Shown here: positions 3,927 to 19,434 of the stretch, piece by piece
Layout of the letters: every line of letters starts with the position of its first letter
Position numbering within the stretch: position 1 is the first letter of the stretch
Source: a virus
Lineage: Duplodnaviria > Heunggongvirae > Uroviricota > Caudoviricetes
Direction: 5' to 3' (one strand)
DNA: 64,000 bases
Virus record (IMG/VR): IMGVR_UViG_3300013426_000013
Span: 125,580-189,579 of that record
Made by a program: the position numbers and the translations under genes
Notes under the pieces: generated by a model
Databases searched by the model: none
Told to the model about the DNA's origin: nothing
The model's input: the letters and a program-made list of their open reading frames with translations, nothing else

Positions 3927-4469
3927 ATGGAATGGACTGAAGATATTGTTGATAAATTAAAAGAGTTGTGGGCTGAAGGATATACAACGCAGAAGATTGC
4001 TGACATGATGCATACAACAAAAGGTACTATTATAGGCAAAGTGCACCGTCTTCAGTTACCTACAAGAAACAAACCTGTAAATTTATGTAAAAAGCATGAA
4101 TGTCATTGTGAACATACTATTGAACACAAACACACATGTAGTTGTCAACACAATAAAGTTAATAAGTCACCATGTATTGAAATTAAAGAAACAAGTATAG
4201 GTGGACATGACGAAGTTAACGAAGAAGTTGATTTGCACAACCTTTATGATGATTCTGTAAAACATGATGATCGTTGTCATAGTGAATACGGTAAAACACT
4301 GTATGAACTAAAACATGATGAATGTCGGTGGCCAATCGGAGATCCTAAATCACCTGAATTTCATTTTTGTGGTGAAAAAACAGTAAATGGAAAACCCTAT
4401 TGTGCTAAACATTGTGCATTTGCATATGTAACAGTTGGTGCTGCTAAAGATTTGAAAAATATAACTTAA
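3927..4469 (+). CDS. gcrA: GcrA-family cell-cycle regulator homolog
   Basis: N-terminal MEWTEDIVDKLKELWAEG...IIGKVHRLQL; C-terminal CRWPIGDP..EFHFCG...GKPYCAKHCAFAY. Confidence 0.93.
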   Translation: MEWTEDIVDKLKELWAEGYTTQKIADMMHTTKGTIIGKVHRLQLPTRNKPVNLCKKHECHCEHTIEHKHTCSCQHNKVNKSPCIEIKETSIGGHDEVNEEVDLHNLYDDSVKHDDRCHSEYGKTLYELKHDECRWPIGDPKSPEFHFCGEKTVNGKPYCAKHCAFAYVTVGAAKDLKNIT

Positions 4470-6203: not shown

Positions 6204-6899
6204 ATGACAACACACTTAATTGATGATAAAGGAATTGAACAACAAACTGTTGCTACAACAAACTACGTATCAAACACAATTGATGAGTTTGCCGGTACTG
6301 TAGATGTTTCTTCAATTATGCGTACATCTGGTGACCAAACTATTTTAGGAACAAAAAGCTTTAGTGGGAAAATAAATTATACAGCTACATTGAGTGCTTC
6401 TGCAAATGATCAACAACCCGCTACAACAGCATGGTGCAATTCAGCAACCAGTATTGTTCATAAAACAGGTGATGAAACAATTAACGGAACTAAAACATTC
6501 TCACAAACAATTAATGGCACCGCAATGTATGCGAATTGGGGAGACCTTGCCGAAATGTATCTAACAGATTTTAATTATAAAGCTGGTACATTAGTTCAGT
6601 TTGGCGGTGAAAAGGAAATGACATTAGCTATCAGTGAAGTTAATGGCGTTGTGTCTTCTGAGCCAGGATTATTAATTAATAACGTTAAGGATGATGGTGC
6701 ACAACCAATTGCCTTAATTGGTAAAGTACCTGTTCGTTTGATTGGTTCTGTTCATAAATTTGATAAAATAACTTTGTCTGATATTCCAGGTGTTGCTAAA
6801 GTTGCTGAAAGTGAAGATAAAGTTATTGGGGTTGCTTTAGAAGATAAATTAGATGAAGATGAGAAATTAGTTTTGTGTTCAGTTAAGCTGAAATTCTAA
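6204..6899 (+). CDS. Tail-fibre-like structural protein heading the radical-SAM operon
   Basis: TSGDQTILGTKSF and TGDETINGTKTF repeats; C-terminal GDLAEMY...GTLVQFGGEKE...LIGKVPV domain seen in large-phage virion proteins. Confidence 0.7.
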   Translation: MTTHLIDDKGIEQQTVATTNYVSNTIDEFAGTVDVSSIMRTSGDQTILGTKSFSGKINYTATLSASANDQQPATTAWCNSATSIVHKTGDETINGTKTFSQTINGTAMYANWGDLAEMYLTDFNYKAGTLVQFGGEKEMTLAISEVNGVVSSEPGLLINNVKDDGAQPIALIGKVPVRLIGSVHKFDKITLSDIPGVAKVAESEDKVIGVALEDKLDEDEKLVLCSVKLKF

Positions 6900-7309
6900 T
6901 GAAACAATATCTATTAGATAAAAGAAAACTTTCATATTTAATCAACGACTGGGATGATTTAAATCTTCCGTTTACTATAAACGATAAAGATATTGCATCT
7001 CAAGTCGTTGATTTCTTTTATGAACAATCTGAATTAGTTTACCCTGCAAAATCATACTTTGTTGCTATCGTTTATGCAAAATGTCTTGAGCACTTCTTTC
7101 ATGAAGATTTTTATGAGTGTCTATCTGTTAAAGATCTATTACCCGATGATAAATTTTTCAAAACGTATATTGACTCTCAAGAAATTTATGATAATATATT
7201 AACACGAATTAAAGACCCGTTATCATATAAATCTGTCGAAAAGACTGTAAGCTATTTTAAAAAGGAATTTCTAATTGGAACTGATAATCAAACCGACAGG
7301 TCGTTGTAA
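6899..7309 (+). CDS. Hypothetical accessory protein of the radical-SAM cluster (YPAKSYFVA motif)
   Basis: Overlaps the stop of 6204-6899 and the start of the first rSAM gene. Confidence 0.75.
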   Translation: MKQYLLDKRKLSYLINDWDDLNLPFTINDKDIASQVVDFFYEQSELVYPAKSYFVAIVYAKCLEHFFHEDFYECLSVKDLLPDDKFFKTYIDSQEIYDNILTRIKDPLSYKSVEKTVSYFKKEFLIGTDNQTDRSL

Positions 7310-8234
7310 TTTTAATTGCAAATTTTGTAGTGCTAATTTATTAAGTATTAAGCACCAAACAAAAGTGCCGAATGAATTAATAAAAATTATTAAAATTATC
7401 AAACCAAACAGTTTGATTTTTACAGGAGGGGACCCTTTATTAGTTGGCCCTGAATATTATCGTGAAATTTTGTCTTTGGGCACATTTTCTATTTCTTTAA
7501 CGACAAACCTAAAAGATTATTACATTCAACCCAAAAGATGGATTAGTTTGTTTAGAAATGAACGTGTCGGAATTTGCACATCTTTTCAATATGGAAATGA
7601 ACGTATGTGGAGTTCTGAACAGGTTTATAGTGAAGATTTATTTAAAAAAGTTATGAAAAGATTTAAAGAAGATATTGGTTACACACCTTCATTTATTTCA
7701 GTCATTTCTAAATCAAATGAGGATAAAGCATTAGATCATTTGTATCTTGCAAAAGAATTGAATACTAAATGCAAAATTAATGGCGTCTTACCAATCGGGC
7801 TATCAAAAGAATATTATCCTTTATATAAAATGATTGATATTTGGTTACAAATAAAAGAAAATAATCTTGAAGAATATTGGGATAACCAAATTCAATTTCA
7901 CAATGGTGGCTGCAATTTTAATACAAACTTAATGTGTTCAAGTACTATTCGCTCTTTTTGGCTTGATGACAACAATAATATACATTATAATAATTGTGAA
8001 GATTGCGCTGTACGTGGTTCGCGTATTCTTTTAGATAAAGGTAAAGTTACACCTAAAGAAGAGAGTATGAAACCTGAACAATTGATTTCTAACGATTGTT
8101 TATATTGTGAATTGTGCAGATTGTGCAATTCTTGTAAATCAACAAGACAAGCAATTATCGATAAACAGACTTTTTGTTTTGAAATGAAAAAACGGAAACA
8201 AAAGATATTGGATGCTAAATGGAAAATCTATTAA
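7275..8234 (+). CDS. Radical SAM protein 1 (SPASM/Twitch-like Cys-rich C-terminus)
   Basis: CNFNCKFC, GGDPL, C-terminal CLYCELCRLCNSC; TTG start after AAAGGA. Confidence 0.92.
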   Translation: MELIIKPTGRCNFNCKFCSANLLSIKHQTKVPNELIKIIKIIKPNSLIFTGGDPLLVGPEYYREILSLGTFSISLTTNLKDYYIQPKRWISLFRNERVGICTSFQYGNERMWSSEQVYSEDLFKKVMKRFKEDIGYTPSFISVISKSNEDKALDHLYLAKELNTKCKINGVLPIGLSKEYYPLYKMIDIWLQIKENNLEEYWDNQIQFHNGGCNFNTNLMCSSTIRSFWLDDNNNIHYNNCEDCAVRGSRILLDKGKVTPKEESMKPEQLISNDCLYCELCRLCNSCKSTRQAIIDKQTFCFEMKKRKQKILDAKWKIY

Positions 8235-9013
8235 CGTCGCTATATGTAATTCCAAACTATCAATGTAATCTTGCATGTCCGCATTGTACATTACACAATT
8301 ATAATATAGAATACAACGAAGAAACATTTATAGAAACATTAGTTAAAACAAACGCCAAAAAGTATATTTTATTTGGTGGAGAACCTTTGTTGCATTTTGA
8401 AAGATTTAAACATATTCTCGAAACTAAAAAGATTAACTCAATATCAACGAACCTTTTATTGTTATCAAAAGAATCACTAAATTTAATTGAATACTACAAC
8501 ATTAACATTGCTACTTCTTGGAATCTAAAAAGGTTCACAAACGATCAATTGAATAAATGGTTTGACAATATTAAAAAGGTACAATGTGACGTTTTAATAA
8601 CAATGACAAACGATTTGATAACTAAAAACGGTACAGAAAAAATGTTTGAAGTTTTAGAACATTTAGAAAGATTATGTACTGTAAAAAATATCATTTTTGA
8701 ACAAGTTGTTGATGATAGAATGAACGAAAAACATTATGAACAAGTTGACAATTGGTTGTGCAACATTCATGATAAATGGCATTTTAAAATGAATAATGCT
8801 ATTGAAGAAAAACTAAATAAATGTATTTTGGATTGTTCAAAAGTTAAAACGCTTGAACCAAACGGTATTTTGCATAATGGTTGCCCACAATTTAAAACTG
8901 TTCATGTTGTTGATAAATGTTTAAGTTGTGAATTAAATAAAATATGTAAGCCATGTATTCTACAAAAACATTGCACATTTCCAATAAAGCTTTACAACAA
9001 ATTAAAGGTTTAA
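8219..9013 (+). CDS. Radical SAM protein 2
   Basis: CNLACPHC, GGEPL, CLSCELNKICKPC. Confidence 0.92.
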   Translation: MENLLTSLYVIPNYQCNLACPHCTLHNYNIEYNEETFIETLVKTNAKKYILFGGEPLLHFERFKHILETKKINSISTNLLLLSKESLNLIEYYNINIATSWNLKRFTNDQLNKWFDNIKKVQCDVLITMTNDLITKNGTEKMFEVLEHLERLCTVKNIIFEQVVDDRMNEKHYEQVDNWLCNIHDKWHFKMNNAIEEKLNKCILDCSKVKTLEPNGILHNGCPQFKTVHVVDKCLSCELNKICKPCILQKHCTFPIKLYNKLKV

Positions 9014-9016
9014 GAA

Positions 9017-10123
9017 ATGAATCCTTTAGAGTTTTATAAAATTAGCGATTACTATGAAATTGCTTGCATGTTATTTGAACCTTGCAATTTGAAGTGTAAA
9101 TTTTGTTTTGAAGATCATAAAAACAAAACAATTGATACTGATTACATTGAGAATATTTACAAGATAATTGATGAAAAATTTTCGATTGATTATGAAAAAT
9201 ATAAACATTCATTAAAGACACTTTATATAATGATGTGGGGTGGTGAAATATTTTATGACGCACTACCTGACGAAGTTTTCAAATCATATTACAAGTTTGT
9301 AAATAATATAAAAGATTTGTTTGATAGGAAATTCCAAAACATAAAAGTTATTTTTTCATGGTTATCAAACGGTGTCTTTACAAACTATAAACGTGTAGAG
9401 GGTATTGTCAGATATTCAGGAGGGATTATTAACTTTAGCTATGACCCTGTTAATAGATTTTCAACATACAAACAAAAGGACTTAATGGTCAAAACAGCAA
9501 CACATTTTAAAAAGATTGGTTTAGCTGATAAAATTTCAATTACATTAACAAAAGACTCCATTAAAGGTTTTACTGAAAATGATGATTTATTAAAATACTT
9601 TAACGATATCGGATTCTTAATTGATGTCAATTACTATATTGCAAATGTCAACTGGCAATCATTATTGGCTACAGATGATGAAATATTTACATTTTTCAAA
9701 TGGGCAATAGATAATAAATTATATAAAATAAAAGTATTGGAAAAATGTTTTGATTCTGTTACAGGAAAGCCGTCATCTTCATACTGCAACTGTTTGTGGT
9801 GTTCCCAAATTACGCATGGTCAATGGAGTGTTGATTGTGCTAAATGTAGTTCAGTATTGCCGTCAGAATTATTTTATGGTGAATACACATCACAAATAAC
9901 AGAAGAAAATTCAAATCAAATTAAGGCATCTATTGGGTTGGTTAAACGTGGGTGTTTAGCCTGTGAATATCATCACATTTGTCAACACCCATGTTGGATT
10001 TCTGTGGTGTTTAAAGGATTTAAACCATCGATTTGCTTTTACAAACAAACTTACGATTATATAAAATCAAATGATGCTATTATCAATGATTTTTTGAAAT
10101 GGAAACACAATGAAACAAAATAA
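9017..10123 (+). CDS. Radical SAM protein 3
   Basis: CNLKCKFC, WGGEIF, CLACEYHHICQHPC. Confidence 0.92.
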   Translation: MNPLEFYKISDYYEIACMLFEPCNLKCKFCFEDHKNKTIDTDYIENIYKIIDEKFSIDYEKYKHSLKTLYIMMWGGEIFYDALPDEVFKSYYKFVNNIKDLFDRKFQNIKVIFSWLSNGVFTNYKRVEGIVRYSGGIINFSYDPVNRFSTYKQKDLMVKTATHFKKIGLADKISITLTKDSIKGFTENDDLLKYFNDIGFLIDVNYYIANVNWQSLLATDDEIFTFFKWAIDNKLYKIKVLEKCFDSVTGKPSSSYCNCLWCSQITHGQWSVDCAKCSSVLPSELFYGEYTSQITEENSNQIKASIGLVKRGCLACEYHHICQHPCWISVVFKGFKPSICFYKQTYDYIKSNDAIINDFLKWKHNETK

Positions 10124-11186
10124 TTTAAGCAGCTTCGGTTTTGATTGTTTATTATTTGAACGTTGCAATCTTCATTGTACTTTTTGTCTTGAAGAACATT
10201 CCGTAAATGATATTGACATTCAATGGATTAGACAACTTCCTTCAATGTTATTAGAAAGATTTGTAAAAGAATATGAAAAACATTCTGAAACAAATCTAAT
10301 CACATTTCGCATTTGGGGAGGTGAATTGTTTTTTGATGCTTTACCTGACAGTCTATTTAAAGAATATAGAATGTTTGTTGAACAAACAAAACGTTTATTT
10401 AATAAAACTTTTCCTAAAATTAAATTGGATTTTGCATGGGTTTCGAACGGTGTCTTTAAAAACATCGAACGAGTTATTAGTTTATTAAAAGAAACAAACA
10501 GTGGAATTAATTTAAGTTACGACCCTATTGGAAGATTTCATAAAAAAGAATTAGAAAATTTAATGATTGAAAATGCTTTACGCTTTAATTCATTGCAATT
10601 ATTGAATGAAATTTCAATCACATTAACTAAACCTTGTATTAATGCATACATAAACGATCAATCTCGACTTTTAGATTTAAAGTTTGCTAAAAAGATTGAT
10701 ATTAATTACTATATACCAAACATTAATTGGAAGGCTTTACTTCCATCTGATGACGATCTTTTTAACTTTTTTAAATGGACAATAGATAATAAACTGTTTC
10801 AAATTATTGATCTAAACAGCTTAATGCTAACACTAACTGGCAAAATGTCTAAATGTGTTAAAGGTTGCAACTGTAATAAACATTTATCAGCATGTAAAAA
10901 TTGTATTACATATAATTGTGTTAAAAGCTCAACAATATTTCCAAATACTGATTTCTATGGTGATACAGTTATTACTGAAGATAATGTCTCTGAAATTAAA
11001 AAGTATAAAGGAATGTGCAAGCGAGGTTGTTTCTATTGTAAATATATAGATAAATGCCCTGGATGTTGCTGGACATCTATTATCTATAAAAATGCTAAAC
11101 TCGACAACTGTCCGTTTAGAAAAATTATAGAATATATTGAACAAAATTCAAATCTAAAAAATGAATTCATATCATGGAAACTTTAA
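10110..11186 (+). CDS. Radical SAM protein 4 (tandem paralog of protein 3)
   Basis: CNLHCTFC, WGGELFFDALPD, CFYCKYIDKCPGCC; shares SNGVF, SYDP.GRF and INYYI.N.NW with protein 3. Confidence 0.92.
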   Translation: MKQNNLSSFGFDCLLFERCNLHCTFCLEEHSVNDIDIQWIRQLPSMLLERFVKEYEKHSETNLITFRIWGGELFFDALPDSLFKEYRMFVEQTKRLFNKTFPKIKLDFAWVSNGVFKNIERVISLLKETNSGINLSYDPIGRFHKKELENLMIENALRFNSLQLLNEISITLTKPCINAYINDQSRLLDLKFAKKIDINYYIPNINWKALLPSDDDLFNFFKWTIDNKLFQIIDLNSLMLTLTGKMSKCVKGCNCNKHLSACKNCITYNCVKSSTIFPNTDFYGDTVITEDNVSEIKKYKGMCKRGCFYCKYIDKCPGCCWTSIIYKNAKLDNCPFRKIIEYIEQNSNLKNEFISWKL

Positions 11187-12073
11187 GAAATTTATCTATA
11201 CAACCATCCTTTAAATGTAATTGGGGTTGTAAATTTTGTTATTTGGGTAATTTAAAAACTGATACAACACTTTTAAACCTCAATGTGTTAAAAGATAAAT
11301 TATCAGAAATTAAACAATATTACAAAATTACCCATGTCCAAGTATTAGGTGGGGAACCAAGCTTGCTTGATTGCTACTATTTGGAAGAGTTGCAAAACTT
11401 GATTAAAGATTATCAAGTTACGTATGTAACTAATTTTTCAAACATTAAATTCGTAAATTTTTGTTTACAACATAATGTGCAAATGACGATATCAGTCAAT
11501 AAAGAAAGACAACACTTTGCAGAAACAATAAAGAATTTAAATTTAATTAAAGGCTTGAAGAATATTCAATTAAGCAGCGTCGTTTTACCCTCACTGTTAA
11601 ATGACAACATTAAAAGCATTTTACAATTCTATAATTCTTTTGGGTTTGATGTTTATTTCTTAAAGTATAACGCTTCAAGAACTAACAAACTTAATTATAA
11701 CATAACAAATGAAAAATACTATAAATTTATTGATGAATTAATTAAACAATATCAGATCGGGCACTATAATTTTAAGATCAAAAATATTGATTTCTTATTG
11801 CAAGACAATATAAATGCCGTCAGTTGTGACTCGTTATTTTTAAACCCTAACGGTAAATTTTCAACAATAACATACGATAATAACAATAAAGAATATTTTG
11901 TTGAATTTGACACTGTTGAACAGTTTAGCAAATTTTGCAAAAGTATTAATGCAAAACAAAAAGATACATGCAAACAATGTTTTTATTATAAACAATGTGG
12001 TTCAAAAAATATTTATAGTTCAGATAAAAATAAATGTATGAATCTTTTTAAAATCAGAAATGAATTACTATGA
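11174..12073 (+). CDS. Radical SAM protein 5
   Basis: CNWGCKFC, GGEPS, CKQCFYYKQC. Confidence 0.92.
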   Translation: METLRNLSIQPSFKCNWGCKFCYLGNLKTDTTLLNLNVLKDKLSEIKQYYKITHVQVLGGEPSLLDCYYLEELQNLIKDYQVTYVTNFSNIKFVNFCLQHNVQMTISVNKERQHFAETIKNLNLIKGLKNIQLSSVVLPSLLNDNIKSILQFYNSFGFDVYFLKYNASRTNKLNYNITNEKYYKFIDELIKQYQIGHYNFKIKNIDFLLQDNINAVSCDSLFLNPNGKFSTITYDNNNKEYFVEFDTVEQFSKFCKSINAKQKDTCKQCFYYKQCGSKNIYSSDKNKCMNLFKIRNELL

Positions 12074-12996
12074 AAAATTTAACATTATCAATAATGCCTT
12101 CATATAAATGCAATTTCAAGTGTCAATATTGTTATTTAGGTAATTTAATACAATCTGACAATCTTTTAAGTTTGGAAAATCTTGAGTCTTCATTACTTGA
12201 ATTAAAGCAATTATATAATATTAAAAATGTTAGTTTGTACGGTGGTGAACTATCACTGCTTGATAACGTTTATTTACAACGTTTGGCGGATTTAATAAAA
12301 CTTCAATTACCTAAATCAAGTATATCTTTAACAAGTAATTTTAGTAATGAAAACATTTTAACTTTTTGTTTACTTAATAATATCAAGCTAAACGTTTCAT
12401 TAAATGAAGAAAGATACCAATACTCAAAAACATTACAACAAATCAAAGAATATACAGGAACAAAGCTTTTTGATCTAACTGTTGTTGTATTACCGTCTAT
12501 TATAAATAGACCAATAAATGAACTATATAAATTTTATAATAAATTAGGGTTTGATGTTTTCTTTATTCAACATCACAATTCAGTCTATAAAAAATCGTGT
12601 TCAATTTCATTAGATCAATTCTCAAGATTTTTATATGATTTCATTTGTTACCATTCAATGCAATCTGACGCTAAATTTAAAATAGAAAATTTAAATGTCT
12701 TAAATGATACAGATTTCGACCCAAACACGGAAGGTTATTTGTTTATAAACCCAAACGGAAAATACTGTACAACCGTTTTTAAAAATAATATAGAACAATA
12801 TGTAACATTTGACAACTTACAACAATGGCAAACATTCTGCGAGAAGAGTTATCAAACGTACATAAAATCTTGTTCAACGTGTAAATACTTTAACAAATGT
12901 AAAGCTGAACACCTTGAAACACTAAACAATAATAATGAATGCTCCGGGTTAAAACGTCTATTGACACTGTTACAAAATCGTTCTATTGTTAAATGA
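12070..12996 (+). CDS. Radical SAM protein 6 (tandem paralog of protein 5)
   Basis: CNFKCQYC, GGELS, CSTCKYFNKC; shares PS.KCN..C..CYLGNL and VVLPS with protein 5. Confidence 0.92.
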   Translation: MKNLTLSIMPSYKCNFKCQYCYLGNLIQSDNLLSLENLESSLLELKQLYNIKNVSLYGGELSLLDNVYLQRLADLIKLQLPKSSISLTSNFSNENILTFCLLNNIKLNVSLNEERYQYSKTLQQIKEYTGTKLFDLTVVVLPSIINRPINELYKFYNKLGFDVFFIQHHNSVYKKSCSISLDQFSRFLYDFICYHSMQSDAKFKIENLNVLNDTDFDPNTEGYLFINPNGKYCTTVFKNNIEQYVTFDNLQQWQTFCEKSYQTYIKSCSTCKYFNKCKAEHLETLNNNNECSGLKRLLTLLQNRSIVK

Positions 12997-13020
12997 CAAG
13001 TCGTACGACGGGTTTAAAAT

Positions 13021-13647
13021 ATGGTAGATTCAAATACAAAGATTCAAAAAATTACAGCAAATTCAATTGTTGGTTTCATTTCACAATTCAATTCAACAGT
13101 TGTTGATCCTGCCTATAATACAGCAACGTATCATTCAGGTAACAAACCTCATTTTTCAAAAACGGCTAACGGGTTAACAACTCCACAATCAGTACCTGAT
13201 AATCAATTGTTAGGTACAAAACGTACGTACCTGTCATCAAACGATACTAGAATAAACGCTGCTTCTTTATGTGCTGCACTATTAAACATTACACAATCTT
13301 TAAGTAAGATTAGAAAATTTCAATCACAATGGTATTTTAATACAAATGGTACACAAGCTTTAGTTGACAGTATGTCTGGAACAGGAATATTAACGTTCCC
13401 TGACATTCCCGCTGGTACAAAAGAAGCGTCATGGACACGTGAAGGAAATACAAATATACAACTGTCACCACAAATGCTTTTTTCTGCGGGTAAGAGAATT
13501 ATGGCTTCTGATGCAAACCAAACAATTGCAAATTGTTTAAATGCTTGGACTTCTCAATGTCGTGATAGCAATGAAATCATATATAAATTCTTTCAATGTT
13601 ATTCAGATTGTCATTCAAATTGTTATGATTCACGAGGAAGAAGATGA
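13021..13647 (+). CDS. Candidate radical-SAM substrate, 208 aa, ending CYSDCHSNCYDSRGRR
   Basis: Ser/Thr/Asn-rich virion-like body with a terminal Cx3Cx3C motif, embedded in the rSAM cluster. Confidence 0.6.
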   Translation: MVDSNTKIQKITANSIVGFISQFNSTVVDPAYNTATYHSGNKPHFSKTANGLTTPQSVPDNQLLGTKRTYLSSNDTRINAASLCAALLNITQSLSKIRKFQSQWYFNTNGTQALVDSMSGTGILTFPDIPAGTKEASWTREGNTNIQLSPQMLFSAGKRIMASDANQTIANCLNAWTSQCRDSNEIIYKFFQCYSDCHSNCYDSRGRR

Positions 13648-14360
13648 TTAAAACTGGTTTGCCTTATGATTTTGAAACTATGCAACAGATAATGCAAGAA
13701 GGCGCGATTGTTGATGTAACTAATATTAATTATCCTTCTATTCCAAATGAAGATAACGTAAAAACAAGTTTGATCTATTTAAGAAACACAAACTTTGACA
13801 ACGTTCATTTGAATTTTCAAAAAGCTGATTATAATTTAAAAGTAGAATTCTTAGATTGCTATTTTTCTGGCGGAAGTTTCCCTTGCAAGATTAATGAATT
13901 GTCTGATACATTATTACATGCAATATTTAAAATTCTAGATATTGACAATGAACTAGAAACAATATTAACCGAACAAGAAGAAGCTTTATATATAAATTCA
14001 CATAAAGAACAATTAAATGAATTGATTCAACTGTCAATATCCTTGCCACTATTTTTAATCAATCGTTTAGATAATATTGATTTTGAAATATCTTTTGATG
14101 ATTTATCAAAATCAAATGATGAAACTTGTAAAGATATCATTAATTTAATTATTGATTCGCCTGAATTTTGCCTGATATACTCTAAAGATTTAGGAATACA
14201 ACCTAAATTTTATGAAAAACTTTTTACATTAGATAACAATGTTTTATTTGAGAATATCTGCAATCATACGCCATTTCAAACTTTAATGTTTGGAATAGCC
14301 GACGAACAAAATTGGAACGCATTTGTAAATTCAATAAAGGAAGTGGTAAATGTTTTATAA
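13644..14360 (+). CDS. Hypothetical accessory protein of the rSAM cluster
   Basis: ATGA overlap with the previous gene; acidic 238 aa. Confidence 0.75.
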   Translation: MIKTGLPYDFETMQQIMQEGAIVDVTNINYPSIPNEDNVKTSLIYLRNTNFDNVHLNFQKADYNLKVEFLDCYFSGGSFPCKINELSDTLLHAIFKILDIDNELETILTEQEEALYINSHKEQLNELIQLSISLPLFLINRLDNIDFEISFDDLSKSNDETCKDIINLIIDSPEFCLIYSKDLGIQPKFYEKLFTLDNNVLFENICNHTPFQTLMFGIADEQNWNAFVNSIKEVVNVL

Positions 14361-15132
14361 TAATATTTATATAAAGACAACTGATGTTTGCCAACAACTT
14401 CCTTTATGTATTAAAAAGACCGCTAAAATTAATCAGAATTTTATTGGTGAAATACATATAGATAATGTCCAATCTATCTATAAAACAACTAACAAAAGTA
14501 TTACTTCAAAAGAAGAAGCTGAAAGAATCATTAATTCTACAAAAGCTATTAAATATTTTCAAGATTTCAATACTTTGCTGCTAAACAATGAATTGGACTT
14601 ATTTTTCGACAATTATTCAGGTGAAGATATTCTAGGGACATATTACTTATATCAAAATTCACAGTTTGAAAATTTTGCGTCATTATTAAATTCTAATTCT
14701 ATTGTTTATTCAACTATAGAAAATGTATATCATAAAAATACACAAGTATTAGATGTAAACATACCTATTGATTTATTTGATAACATTTTGATACAATATG
14801 ATGCACTATCTTATGGTGCTGAAAACAATTTTATTAACGATTACTTTTCACACGACGAAATTGTTAGTATACTAAATGATACTGTTAATAAAGGATTAAA
14901 AACAGCATTACAAATGTTTCTGCAAAACGACGGCAGCTTGTTACCTTCTAATAATAAATGTGAACTACAAGCATTATTGTTAATGATGCTAAAAGTTCCA
15001 TCAATACCTGTTAAATTATCAATCCTTGATAACAGCAGGTACAATAGCACAATAAATAATTTTAGACCGCACAAACAAATTAATAAACAAAAAATTCAAG
15101 AGCTGATACAGCCAAACTTTATTTTGCCATGA
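14350..15132 (+). CDS. Hypothetical accessory protein of the rSAM cluster
   Basis: Overlapping and translationally coupled; 260 aa. Confidence 0.7.
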   Translation: MFYNNIYIKTTDVCQQLPLCIKKTAKINQNFIGEIHIDNVQSIYKTTNKSITSKEEAERIINSTKAIKYFQDFNTLLLNNELDLFFDNYSGEDILGTYYLYQNSQFENFASLLNSNSIVYSTIENVYHKNTQVLDVNIPIDLFDNILIQYDALSYGAENNFINDYFSHDEIVSILNDTVNKGLKTALQMFLQNDGSLLPSNNKCELQALLLMMLKVPSIPVKLSILDNSRYNSTINNFRPHKQINKQKIQELIQPNFILP

Positions 15133-16106
15133 ATGAATTAATCATCTATTTGAAACTTACTAATCGTTGTCAATTACGTTGTCAGCATTGTTATAATGCT
15201 GTTTCAAAATTTAATGACGACTTATCTGTCAATACTTTAAAACAAGCCGTTTCTTTTATCAACAATAAAACTTTGACAAATAATGTAACATTAATACTAC
15301 ACGGTGGCGAACCTTTATATGACGGGATACAAAAATCCCAATTTGTTATTGATAATGTTGATAAAAAAGTTAACCTTTATATAACAACAAATTTAATGTA
15401 CAATATTGATGAAAAAACATTAAATTTCTTCAAACAATTCAAATTAATTTCAACATCGTGGGATTACAAAATTCGCTTCCGAACTAAACAACAATTAAAA
15501 CTTTGGGAAAATAATGTTAGAAAATTAACAGAATCAAACATAAATATTCAACCTATAGTTTCACTCAATAAATATTTAATAAACGAAATAAAATCAGACG
15601 CTTTATTTTCATATTTTAAACAATTTAACATATCAAAATTAAATTTTGAACGAATCACAGAAACTGGAAATGCTGCGAAATTTAATGTTAAAGCAAATAA
15701 TAGTGATATCGACAAATGGCTGTATAATGCATATATAGAAAATATCAACAAATTTAATTTTACAATCCCATTATTTGAAAGTTGTGAAGAAGCTGTTTTT
15801 CATAATAATTTGATAGGATGCAGGAAACGGCAATGCCAAAAGAAAATAATTACAATCAATACAGATGGAACAATTTGCGGGTGTCCTAACAGCTATCAAT
15901 TTACATATGGTGATATTTATGGGAAAACAAATGTTGATGTCTACAACTCTTTAATTACCAAAGAATTAATCAGAAATAACAATTGTTATATTTGTCAATA
16001 CTTTAAATATTGTAACGGAGACTGTTGCCAACTTAATTGGGATGAAACAGGTTGCCCTGGAATGCCGTCAATATTTGAATATTTAATAAATAAAGCCGGG
16101 AATTAA
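15129..16106 (+). CDS. Radical SAM protein 7 with SPASM-like domain
   Basis: CQLRCQHC, LHGGEPL, INTDGTICGCP, CYICQYFKYCNGDCC. Confidence 0.93.
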   Translation: MNELIIYLKLTNRCQLRCQHCYNAVSKFNDDLSVNTLKQAVSFINNKTLTNNVTLILHGGEPLYDGIQKSQFVIDNVDKKVNLYITTNLMYNIDEKTLNFFKQFKLISTSWDYKIRFRTKQQLKLWENNVRKLTESNINIQPIVSLNKYLINEIKSDALFSYFKQFNISKLNFERITETGNAAKFNVKANNSDIDKWLYNAYIENINKFNFTIPLFESCEEAVFHNNLIGCRKRQCQKKIITINTDGTICGCPNSYQFTYGDIYGKTNVDVYNSLITKELIRNNNCYICQYFKYCNGDCCQLNWDETGCPGMPSIFEYLINKAGN

Positions 16107-16122
16107 TCCCGGCCTTTCTTTT
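16092..16122. terminator. Terminator ending the rSAM operon
   Basis: GCCGGGA / TCCCGGC stem followed by CTTTCTTTT. Confidence 0.85.
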
Positions 16123-17737: not shown

Positions 17738-18367
17738 TTATTTATTTTTCTTGTAAACTTCATTAGCGCCAATGATGCCTTGTGCACGTAAATGTTTTTT
17801 AAAACAACGACGACAGCATGATTCATACTTTACATCATCACTTTCACAACCTGCATTGCCAGCTAAATATTTACCGCCAGATAAACGAATATGATGTGTT
17901 GCACGACGACCACAATCACAAATTCCAATAGTCTCTTCTAGCTCATCAGCAATAGCTAATAAAGTTGCACTTCCTTCGAACAAATCACCTTCAGCTGTTG
18001 TTTTCAGACCATAGCACATTACTGGAATGCCTAAATCATCTACAACATCACTTAAATAATATACATCTTCTTTTTTACAAAATTGTGACTCATCTACAAA
18101 AATAATATCTAAGTCTTCTACAGTGATAAAATTAGGTAAGTCACTAAATTTTCCTGAATCTAAAAACAAACACTCTGGCCCTTCAGGAATCGGTCTTGAA
18201 CATGTTGTCCCCATTTGACCGTGCGTAAAAGCACCATTTCTAGTATCCGTCGTTGGTTTAATAATTAATGTCTTTTTACCCTTTTCTTTATATGAATGGT
18301 TTTTACAAATCAATAAAGAGCTTTTACTGGAACCCATTGTTCCATATATGAAAAAAAGTTTAGCCAC
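17738..18367 (-). CDS. tdk: Thymidine kinase
   Basis: GTMGSSKS P-loop, IFVDESQF, VMCYGL, CDCGRRA...CCRRC zinc site. Confidence 0.93.
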   Translation of the reverse strand: MAKLFFIYGTMGSSKSSLLICKNHSYKEKGKKTLIIKPTTDTRNGAFTHGQMGTTCSRPIPEGPECLFLDSGKFSDLPNFITVEDLDIIFVDESQFCKKEDVYYLSDVVDDLGIPVMCYGLKTTAEGDLFEGSATLLAIADELEETIGICDCGRRATHHIRLSGGKYLAGNAGCESDDVKYESCCRRCFKKHLRAQGIIGANEVYKKNK

Positions 18368-18422
18368 TTTTAGCTTCCTTGTAGCTGTTGTTTAGATAAA
18401 ATCAGAACCATTGAAACAATAG

Positions 18423-19067
18423 TCAATCTTTTAGAATTAAATCTAAAACAGTTTGCTGATATTCTTCCAATGTTCCATTATTATAAATCGTGAAGTCTTC
18501 CAAACACAACCCTGCTAAAGACCTTTCAGACGCATGTACTTGCTTTAACAAATCAGGCAATTCAACATCTTCACCCCTTGCTTTAGCTACATTATACTTT
18601 TGTGCTGCAATATACCATTTAGGTAATTCCCCTCGTTTAATTCTATAAACAACACCATCTAAATCATGAATCATATTTACTTCATTCGGAAAACGTACAT
18701 CAGTAATTAAGTACGTTCCATCATAATCAGAATTCGCTAAACGATGCTTTAAAGCATAAACCCAAAAAGCATTATCAATTGTGTTTCTAAAACATTCTGT
18801 TCCAATTAACTGTAAAGCCAATCGAGGTGTAAATTCTTTTCCTAATACTTCAGACCAAAATTCATCTTTAGTTTCACGGAATTGTCTTGATTCAACGGTA
18901 TCGCCTTGCAATAACTTTCGATCCCACCCAAAAGATGCTGCCACAACATCTTTAACAGCATCCCCAAATGAAATCTTTTTATAACTATTACTTTTCGCAC
19001 ATAAAACATCAGCAGCAGTGTCTTTTCCTGAACCTGCTAATCCTGAAAAACCTATAATTTTAGCCAT
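18423..19067 (-). CDS. Deoxynucleoside monophosphate kinase (T4 gp1-like)
   Basis: IIGFSGLAGSGKDT, SFGDAVK, TPRLALQLIGTE, ITDVRFPNE. Confidence 0.9.
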   Translation of the reverse strand: MAKIIGFSGLAGSGKDTAADVLCAKSNSYKKISFGDAVKDVVAASFGWDRKLLQGDTVESRQFRETKDEFWSEVLGKEFTPRLALQLIGTECFRNTIDNAFWVYALKHRLANSDYDGTYLITDVRFPNEVNMIHDLDGVVYRIKRGELPKWYIAAQKYNVAKARGEDVELPDLLKQVHASERSLAGLCLEDFTIYNNGTLEEYQQTVLDLILKD

Positions 19068-19434
19068 TGTCAGGAACAACCTCTTTTAAAGTTACTCTTG
19101 TACGGTGTGGTGTTTCAATAATGTAATTCTTGAAACGAGGGTCTTTACGAACTTCTTTCATGTCAATTTCTTTTTTCCATAATTTTTCAGAATACGGGAT
19201 TGTATTCATAATTGCTTGACCAGCTTCAGTTAAAGAGTAACCTTTACAATCAGCAATCATTACCGAAATATCACCTAAAATAAATGTTTTCTGTTCAGGT
19301 TCTGCTACGACTTTTAACTCTTCAACTAAAGCATTTTCACATTTTTCTTTATATTCAGTTAATTCCTTAATCTTTTCACGCAACCGTTTTACTGCAATAG
19401 CTTTATCTCTTAAATCCTGTACTGATACAATCAT
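19060..19434 (-). CDS. Hypothetical protein
   Basis: Start re-assigned to MIVSVQ after AAAGGTGG; promoter TTGACA-17-TATTTT at 19466-19494. Confidence 0.7.
   Translation of the reverse strand: MIVSVQDLRDKAIAVKRLREKIKELTEYKEKCENALVEELKVVAEPEQKTFILGDISVMIADCKGYSLTEAGQAIMNTIPYSEKLWKKEIDMKEVRKDPRFKNYIIETPHRTRVTLKEVVPDNG

Follow-up and report, generated by a model that had tools for sequence, protein, structure and literature searches.

The window analysed here (the whole stretch of 64,000 nucleotides, bases 125580-189579 of the 313,762-bp IMG/VR virus record IMGVR_UViG_3300013426_000013, designated G000 in locus names) carries an operon of 12 open reading frames (ORFs) on the + strand at window positions 6204-16106, in which seven genes encode radical S-adenosylmethionine (radical SAM) enzymes, named A1 to A7 in gene order, and one encodes a small protein, X1, ending in a tail of Cys and His/Tyr repeats. 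As judged from sequence comparisons, the operon is probably an oxygen-independent version of a widespread jumbo-phage cassette that matures one small phage protein, X1. Multi-step post-translational modification of a phage protein, which the initial annotation had proposed for these genes, is the best-supported explanation, given the central position of X1 in the module, the presence of an X1 homologue in a virion, and the nearest relatives of the enzymes. The product of 13021-13647, which that annotation put forward for co-expression with the enzymes, is X1 itself, the conserved centre of the module.

X1 (13021-13647, + strand; 208 aa) is the candidate substrate, with a folded domain and, after it, the C-terminal tail CYSDCHSNCYDSRGRR (codons 13597-13644). 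X1 had no family match in Pfam, NCBIfam or PHROG and no usable match in ESM Atlas, a word-based search yielded close sequence relatives only, and single-sequence searches of viral contigs with X1 and A7 confirmed nothing. In phmmer, X1 showed a weak link to the product of the gene directly downstream of the A7 orthologue in phages RSF1 (ORF071) and Atu_ph07 (gp170), and the C-termini of these two proteins (CHSSCHSSCHGSRGRR and CHSSCHASCHNSRSRR, respectively) are like that of X1. An alignment-based scan of viral contigs added seven further X1 loci, and a seven-sequence X1 profile searched against 1.84 billion representative proteins generated 770 matches at E ≤ 1e-3, 418 of them at E ≤ 1e-10. 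The strict ending C-[H/Y]-x-x-C-[H/Y]-x-x-C-[H/Y]-x-x-R-x-R-R was present in 137 of the 152 sequences inspected, and the fourth repeat position was Ser or Asn in 126-132 of these 137. A few members, including X1 of the window, carry Tyr for His in the tail, and five members contain a fourth repeat. The median number of Cys residues outside the tail was zero among the inspected sequences. The family bodies are 17-45% identical to X1, and the x positions of the tail differ freely even among close relatives; a conserved tail with free x positions is more in keeping with a site of recognition or modification than with a structural element.

The AlphaFold2 (AF2) model of X1 was confident for the body (predicted local distance difference test, pLDDT, 90.6; predicted template modelling score, pTM, 0.84) and less so for the tail. 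The fold search with this model gave nothing at E ≤ 0.001 in the PDB with Foldseek, a top VIA-align Z of 4.6, and family members only in BFVD; no new fold is claimed. One member of the X1 family, P0050 (453 aa; L012:8001-9362), has an N-terminal extension with the Pfam domain Gly_rich_2, which fits a structural role. X2 (13644-14360, + strand; 238 aa) is the partner encoded directly after X1. The X2 family recovered by jackhmmer corresponds to the ~240-aa gene directly downstream of X1 in every readable locus, with 90 homologues and no Pfam family. The AF2 model of X2 (pLDDT 90.1) had no fold match at E ≤ 0.001 in the PDB with Foldseek (top VIA-align Z 4.2), and no new fold is claimed here either. 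A decayed radical SAM domain was considered as the origin of X2 and rejected, as hhalign against the A7 profile gave a probability of 0.1.

When A7, A1, A3 and A5 were used as tblastn queries, one distinct orthologue of each was found in the same 15 records, which are jumbo phages of Agrobacterium (Atu_ph07), Sinorhizobium (Phosso), Ralstonia (RSF1, RSL2, RsoM3USA and the FLC4 phages), Burkholderia (FLC6, FLC8 and SURPRISE13) and Pseudomonas (DT01). These shared records indicate that the four orthogroups are conserved over lineages as unlike as T4/Rak2-like and phiKZ-like phages. Gene neighbourhoods were compared in the window and loci L001-L014 and L016 (a 16-locus architecture table), and in the P0020 locus by its gene table. 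This search over jumbo phages, which had been suggested in the initial annotation, revealed strict co-location: every examined locus has X1 and X2 in the midst of orthologues of the same four enzyme groups (A7, A3/A4, A1, A5/A6), though gene order varies between clades. The usual layout is a JmjC-type cupin, A7, X1, X2, often a protein of ~360-385 residues, A3/A4, A1, one or more 2-oxoglutarate-Fe(II) (2OG-Fe(II)) oxygenases, A5/A6, and an accessory protein, Y, and the A7 orthogroup is directly upstream of X1 in most relatives. Some relatives carry GNAT, methyltransferase, B12-binding radical SAM or further radical SAM genes in addition; a B12-binding radical SAM enzyme is included, for example, in the L012 cassette. 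The accessory enzymes of the relatives (JmjC cupin, 2OG oxygenases, GNAT, methyltransferases) are all of protein-modifier types. In the RSF1 array, ORF074 (L002:15820-16923; 367 aa), annotated as hypothetical, has CxxxCxxC and is probably an unannotated radical SAM gene.

Two pattern scans of one genome per species for 185,579 prokaryotic species found no locus in the first and a single locus in the second, which used a different pattern. Locus L016 (NZGN01000038.1, a 113-kb contig of a Marinovum sp. metagenome-assembled genome) contains a complete cassette, JmjC-A7-X1-X2-...-A1-A5-Y, and may represent a prophage, a phage binned in error, or a copy in the cellular genome. Judging from where its sequences occur, the X1 family is essentially viral. 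The array of RP12/RP31 was also considered, but it looks different and no link to X1 was made. No account of the module was found in the literature searched, a search that most subscription journals fell outside, and genome papers merely list the genes.

In the window clade (G000, L003, L007 and L011, plus the P0020 locus by gene table), the cassette is rearranged. PF08007 (JmjC) and PF13759 (2OG) had no match across the 313,762-bp genome, and JmjC and 2OG genes were likewise absent from the L003, L007 and L011 cassettes. The A2 orthogroup was seen only in this clade, and A3 and A5 are duplicated there. Compared with the 'Cys-His tail' cassette of the relatives, the window thus carries the X1 tail, X2 directly downstream and, within one operon, the orthologues of A7, A3/A4, A1 and A5/A6, but not the JmjC/2OG genes. 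From this one clade, we infer that the window cassette is an oxygen-independent version. Features specific to the window are its seven-enzyme architecture without oxygenases, the A2 orthogroup, the tail with Tyr, and a second, unrelated radical SAM battery in the same genome.

All seven A proteins contain CxxxCxxC, starting at residues 10-22, and a GG[E/D] motif, as read from the translations, and all seven matched phrog_1802, 'radical SAM domain-containing protein' (E 7e-11 to 6e-36). The motifs reported in the initial annotation were thus borne out, and the proteins belong to the radical SAM superfamily. The gathering score of PF04055 was exceeded by A1 (48.9 bits), A5 (33.5 bits) and A6 (30.8 bits), while A2, A3, A4 and A7 scored below it. 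The seven enzymes form five very divergent groups, with 40% identity between A3 and A4, 35% between A5 and A6, and ≤ 26% in the remaining pairs. A1 (7275-8234, + strand), A3 (9017-10123, + strand), A5 (11174-12073, + strand) and A7 (15129-16106, + strand; phrog_1802 E 6e-36) represent the core orthogroups A1, A3/A4, A5/A6 and A7, with orthologues ORF079, ORF075, ORF081 and ORF070 in RSF1 and gp165, gp168, gp164 and gp171 in Atu_ph07, respectively. A4 (10110-11186, + strand) is a paralogue of A3, and A6 (12070-12996, + strand; Fer4_12 26.3 bits) is a paralogue of A5. A2 (8219-9013, + strand), a SPASM-like radical SAM protein with CxxxCxxC and a phrog_1802 match at E 8e-14, has orthologues only in L003, L007 and L011.

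The C-terminal Cys clusters had been described as SPASM/twitch-like, which holds in canonical form for A7 and A3/A4, whose alignments contain seven conserved Cys (C..G....C / CxxCx5Cx3C / C), and in twitch-like form for A5/A6, whose orthologue alignment contains four conserved C-terminal Cys; the orthologue alignment of A1 also has seven conserved Cys, but with variant spacing. On these orthologue alignments the enzymes were placed in the SPASM/twitch subgroup, and the Pfam SPASM model had no match at E ≤ 0.1 on window proteins. As single sequences, A7 and A1 found nothing among PDB sequences, and profiles were required. The A7 and A1 profiles searched against all PDB sequences both had anSME as the top match over the full length (E 7.7e-11 and 9e-8, respectively), the A3/A4 profile had CteB and ChlB, and the A5/A6 profile had the peptide epimerase YydG (E 4.7e-12); ChlB was among the matches of all four orthogroup profiles. 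Placement against radical SAM enzymes of DNA-base or cofactor biosynthesis, which was to decide whether the modification pathway could stand, therefore favoured it, as the nearest solved relatives are protein or peptide modifiers and not nucleotide or cofactor enzymes. The top NCBIfam matches of the enzymes were peptide maturases as well, with every score far under the curated cut-off, and by these scores none of the seven belongs to a named family. As CxxxCxxC starts at residues 10-22, there is no space for an N-terminal leader-recognition domain, as in the protein-acting anSME.

The X1 homologue of Atu_ph07, gp170, is among the virion proteins of that phage identified by electrospray ionisation tandem mass spectrometry, with 8 unique peptides and 35.16% coverage (PMC6102473 Table S5). 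Masses were recomputed to confirm the gene numbering and were 31.89 kDa for gp170 and 66.07 kDa for gp176, the homologue of the tail-fibre-like protein that opens the operon. gp170 was seen in gel bands 1-9 and was most abundant in band 1, the top of the SDS gel, although bands 7-8 are where the other 29-32 kDa proteins reach their maximum; apart from gp170, band 1 contains 87-127 kDa proteins, and those of 117-137 kDa have their maximum in band 2 (PMC6102473). The radical SAM proteins gp164, gp165, gp168 and gp171, the X2 homologue gp169, and the cupin gp172 are absent from the virion list (PMC6102473). As gp170 is listed and the enzymes are not, the tail-bearing protein is structural and the enzymes are not, and gp170 runs far above its mass. 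By homology to gp170, X1 is predicted to be a virion protein.

These observations lead to the following model. X1 would consist of a folded body of ~190 residues and an exposed 16-residue tail, (Cys-[His/Tyr]-x-[Ser/Asn])x3-Arg-x-Arg-Arg, and the radical SAM groups A7, A1, A3/A4 and A5/A6 would act by hydrogen-atom abstraction, each at a set place in this tail, probably assisted by X2, which is always adjacent, and by Y. Possible outcomes are conversion of Cys or Ser to formylglycine, Cys thioethers, cyclophanes joining His or Tyr to a C-beta, and epimerisation. Modification would take place before or during assembly, and the modified X1 would then be built into the virion, where the tail could form crosslinks, bind metal or bind DNA. 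In the window clade, A2 and the duplicates A4 and A6 may stand in for the JmjC/2OG oxygenases.

Thioether or C-C crosslinks are a guess as to the chemistry, and the tail can be read by analogy in three ways. First, as in systems that form thioethers, its three Cys may serve as donors, spaced at i, i+4 and i+8. Second, it may present three aromatic-x-[S/N] units, as in the triceptide cyclophanes, a reading that the His-to-Tyr swaps in this phage fit. Third, its end may contain two overlapping [C/S]-x-small-x-R units, resembling the formylglycine motif of anSME. The likeness of A5/A6 to YydG suggests epimerisation as a further step. A bolder form of the model, which we put forward tentatively and regard as doubtful, is that the team of radical SAM enzymes rewrites the tail into a reactive or crosslinked end piece (e.g. 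aldehydes, thioethers or cyclophanes) that covalently staples X1 into the particle or acts in DNA ejection. This would be a kind of maturation without described precedent, and the window clade would represent an all-radical-SAM, oxygen-free re-invention of the JmjC/2OG steps.

Several points weigh against maturation of X1 by the cassette. The loading buffer described for Atu_ph07 contains no reductant (PMC6102473), so that ordinary disulfides of the tail Cys are a simple alternative to enzyme-made crosslinks as the source of the high-mass gp170 signal, as is aggregation. The three Cys and three His of the tail could be a plain metal site. Since the scores for named families are far below the cut-offs, the kinship of the enzymes says 'peptide/protein-type radical SAM' and no more. 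The complementarity between A2 and the JmjC genes comes from one clade (four loci vs. about ten), and these loci are not phylogenetically independent. Finally, the RSF1 array contains two dihydrofolate reductase (DHFR) genes and an HNH gene, and with these inside the array the neighbourhood is not purely protein-directed.

A rival reading is that the tail is only a metal-binding or disulfide site, that the enzymes act on DNA bases, nucleotides, a metabolite or host proteins, and that X1 and X2 are structural passengers of the same late operon. Cys/His repeats are classic metal ligands, the high-mass gp170 signal could be disulfide-based with no reductant listed, and DHFR genes lie inside the RSF1 array; moreover, thymidine kinase and deoxynucleoside monophosphate (dNMP) kinase genes are located just downstream of the operon on the other strand, and radical SAM enzymes take part in phage DNA hypermodification (PMC8989533). 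However, the linkage of X1 and X2 to the same four orthogroups survives rearrangement over very distant phages, which is unexpected of passengers, and genes of nucleotide metabolism are not a conserved part of the cassette. Over the full length, the enzymes have protein or peptide modifiers as their nearest solved relatives, and an aromatic reaction partner would account for the exchange of His for Tyr in the tail no less well than a metal ligand would. We thus consider passengers unlikely.

The enzymes might alternatively act on X1 to yield a product like a RiPP (a ribosomally synthesised peptide that is post-translationally modified), with the X1 body as a very long leader and the modified 16-residue tail cut off as a free peptide or a peptide-derived cofactor, as for pyrroloquinoline quinone (PQQ) and mycofactocin. 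Both PqqE and MftC have C-terminal residues of the respective precursor as their target, maturation of RiPPs and cofactors is typical of SPASM enzymes, and the conservation of X1 is confined to the extreme C-terminus, with a freely varying body. Nevertheless, no conserved protease or transporter gene was found in the cassette in the loci examined, the enzymes have no space for an N-terminal leader-recognition domain, and the body of ~190 residues is well folded (pLDDT 90.6) and conserved enough to define a family of 770 clusters. The gp170 body is itself in the Atu_ph07 virion (35% coverage), and release of the tail as a small product appears quite improbable. A role as auxiliary metabolic genes aiding anaerobic metabolism of the host, which Timms et al. 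2010 proposed for phages CP220 and CPt10 (PMC2853527) and which would suit the many anaerobic pathways served by radical SAM enzymes, is very improbable here, given that no match to a metabolic radical SAM family reaches its cut-off, that a tail-fibre-like gene and the gene for a virion-protein homologue share the transcript with them, and that aerobic soil bacteria are among the hosts of phages with this cassette.

The 12 genes of the operon, in the order TF, Y, A1-A6, X1, X2, X3, A7, each overlap the next or lie ≤ 24 nt from it. The radical SAM genes had been described as seven consecutive or overlapping genes; six are indeed in a row, but the seventh follows three genes of other kinds (13021-15132). 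Transcription in one direction from a tail-fibre-like gene to a single terminator was confirmed in the layout. The first gene, TF (6204-6899, + strand), encodes a 231-aa tail-fibre-like protein with matches to Pfam BppL_N (E 1e-10), the Peptidase_G2 intramolecular-chaperone domain (E 9e-5) and PHROG tail-fibre families, and the operon is closed by a bidirectional intrinsic hairpin at 16092-16116 (7-10 pairs, 6 of them GC, with T-runs on both strands). TF homologues adjoin the cassette in L003, L007, L011 and Atu_ph07, where the homologue gp176 is a virion protein, and a 725-aa protein encoded at G000:C1:262308-264485 is 41% identical to TF in its C-terminal ~150 residues. Y (6899-7309, + strand) is a conserved accessory protein of 136 aa that matched phrog_20737 (E 4e-21) and no Pfam family; its homologues are present in 11 examined loci, mostly at the far end of the cassette. 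X3 (14350-15132, + strand; 260 aa) is lineage-specific, being present, among the examined loci, only in L003, a close relative, and has no family match in Pfam, NCBIfam or PHROG searches. L003 has the same 12-gene layout with 61-86% protein identity, and the ratio of nonsynonymous to synonymous substitution rates (dN/dS) against L003 was 0.04-0.14 for all 12 genes (0.12 for X3), values that are approximate with dS near saturation.

The record was rated complete by CheckV and has a G+C content of ~31%. The window also encodes a tail sheath, several tail-fibre genes and an ORF of 1839 residues, and the source is a jumbo myovirus-like phage; no near-identical DNA was found in the phage collection searched. 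A homologue of the cell-cycle regulator GcrA (180 aa; PF07750, E 9e-31) is encoded at window 3927-4469 (+ strand), and L003 has one too. The thymidine kinase (PF00265, E 8e-32) and dNMP kinase (PF21448, E 6e-13) genes at window 17738-19079 (- strand), just past the terminator, recur as neighbours in L003 and the P0020 locus. The second battery, four different radical SAM genes, is located at G000:C1:98033-103635, ~22-27 kb upstream of the window, and its enzymes share a C-terminal CGHS...CxxCD cluster. Upstream of it are genes for two paralogue-like proteins, one ending in a long Ser/Cys run, and downstream are desulfurase-like genes and a TnpB-like gene. Kinship of X1 to these poly-Ser/Cys-tailed proteins was not supported (hhalign probability < 1; no BLAST or phmmer match). 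A twelfth, small radical SAM gene (231 aa; G000:C1:301590-302285) has the top PF04055 score of the genome (54 bits); it is unrelated to both batteries and may encode an activase- or QueE-like enzyme.

The presence of up to a dozen radical SAM genes in some large virulent phages has been unexplained since 2010. For one large group of these phages, the module offers an explanation that is concrete and testable, with a substrate family defined by a 16-residue tail, four conserved enzyme families, and the cultured phages Atu_ph07, RSL2, RSF1, DT01 and the FLC phages. If the model is true, enzyme-installed radical chemistry would join the known routes of virus-particle maturation, and the cassette would be a source of new enzymes for peptide and protein modification that do not depend on a leader peptide. 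With its Tyr-for-His tail, the seven-enzyme version lacking oxygenases would be a natural experiment on the steps that are feasible without oxygen.

Large radical SAM arrays have been reported in other virulent phages, i.e., 11-12 genes of unexplained role in the Campylobacter phages CP220 and CPt10 (PMC2853527) and 12 in a T4-like marine genome (PMC5332604). They resemble the window in having many radical SAM genes in one virulent phage, with a function unexplained since 2010. The Campylobacter arrays mentioned in the initial annotation thus exist in CP220 and CPt10, but no Campylobacter phage was among the tblastn matches of A1, A3, A5 and A7, and a link of the window to these phages was not confirmed.

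Among solved structures, anSME (PDB 4K36-4K39; TIGR03942) is the closest to A7 and A1 over the full length, and it resembles them in lacking an N-terminal recognition domain and in acting on a protein; its SPASM domain has seven Cys, as in A7. anSME oxidises Cys or Ser in C/S-x-P/A-x-R, and the family-consensus tail end contains C-H-G-S-R and S-R-G-R-R, which are of the form [C/S]-x-small-x-R. In contrast to the anSME motif, the +2 position in the X1 tail is Gly, Ser, Asn or Asp, not Pro or Ala, and three repeats and four enzyme families stand against one enzyme and one site. The TIGR03942 scores were 21 bits for A1 and 15.7 bits for A6 against a cut-off of 349, and the operon is without a sulfatase gene. 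The thioether-forming SPASM maturases (CteB on SCIFF peptides, PapB on ranthipeptides, and QhpD on QhpC) share with the cassette regularly spaced Cys donors in the substrate, and the target of QhpD is a protein subunit. Among solved structures, CteB is the closest to A3/A4, and PapB is the top NCBIfam match of A2 and the second of A7, but the Asp/Glu acceptor of PapB at +4 is missing from the X1 tail. Ranthipeptide/SCIFF membership was not supported, as PapB (NF047865) scored 44.7 bits with A7 and 31.1 bits with A2 against a cut-off of 340, and X1 is a folded protein of 208 residues, not a short leader-bearing precursor. The X1 tail is formally a three-unit CXXX repeat, but A7 scored 24.1 bits against a cut-off of 350 for the CXXX-repeat target family TIGR04115 (Haft).

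Triceptide synthases act on aromatic-x-x motifs, which are often repeated, and bond the ring of the aromatic residue (His at C2, Tyr, Phe or Trp) with the C-beta of the residue at +2 (PMC11499958). Those named HaaB, HtkB, YhhB and ChlB are radical SAM/SPASM enzymes like those of the cassette, and the X1 tail has three aromatic-x-x motifs, with Tyr for His in this phage. Unlike X1, their substrates are short leader-bearing bacterial peptides, and Cys is outside their motif. Among the triceptide-related models AmcB (NF041718), YhhB (NF041707), XyeB (TIGR04496) and FxsB (TIGR04269), the best scores were 34 bits (A7 vs. AmcB, cut-off 425) and 27 bits (A5).

The bacterial HXS defence system provides a cellular precedent for radical SAM maturation of a folded protein with His-x-Ser repeats. 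In HXS, the proteins HxsB, HxsC and HxsD mature HxsA, a folded protein with His-x-Ser repeats, by a change of +8 Da mapped to an SHRSS motif, and the product blocks entry of phage DNA (Li et al., Nat Commun 2026; PMC13128918). Membership in HXS was not found: the window enzymes reached 15-28 bits with the HxsB and HxsC models, including 27.6 bits for A1 and 24.5 bits for A7 with HxsC (cut-off 268) and 22.4 bits for A2 with HxsB (cut-off 370), and X1, X2 and X3 matched no NCBIfam model, HxsA and HxsD included. HXS is cellular, has two enzymes, and yields a periplasmic defence effector with a peptidoglycan-binding domain, whereas the cassette is viral, has 4-9 enzymes, and has repeats that are each opened by an invariant Cys and located at the exact C-terminus of what is, by homology, a virion product. 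In both systems, several radical SAM enzymes and a small accessory protein mature, or in the case of X1 would mature, a folded protein rather than a short peptide. HxsA has tandem His-x-Ser units rich in basic residues, and in the X1 tail RxRR comes after three [H/Y]-x-[S/N] units. If the end piece of X1 acts in DNA ejection, it would be the viral equivalent of the HXS effector, which keeps DNA from entering, and might even serve to counter it.

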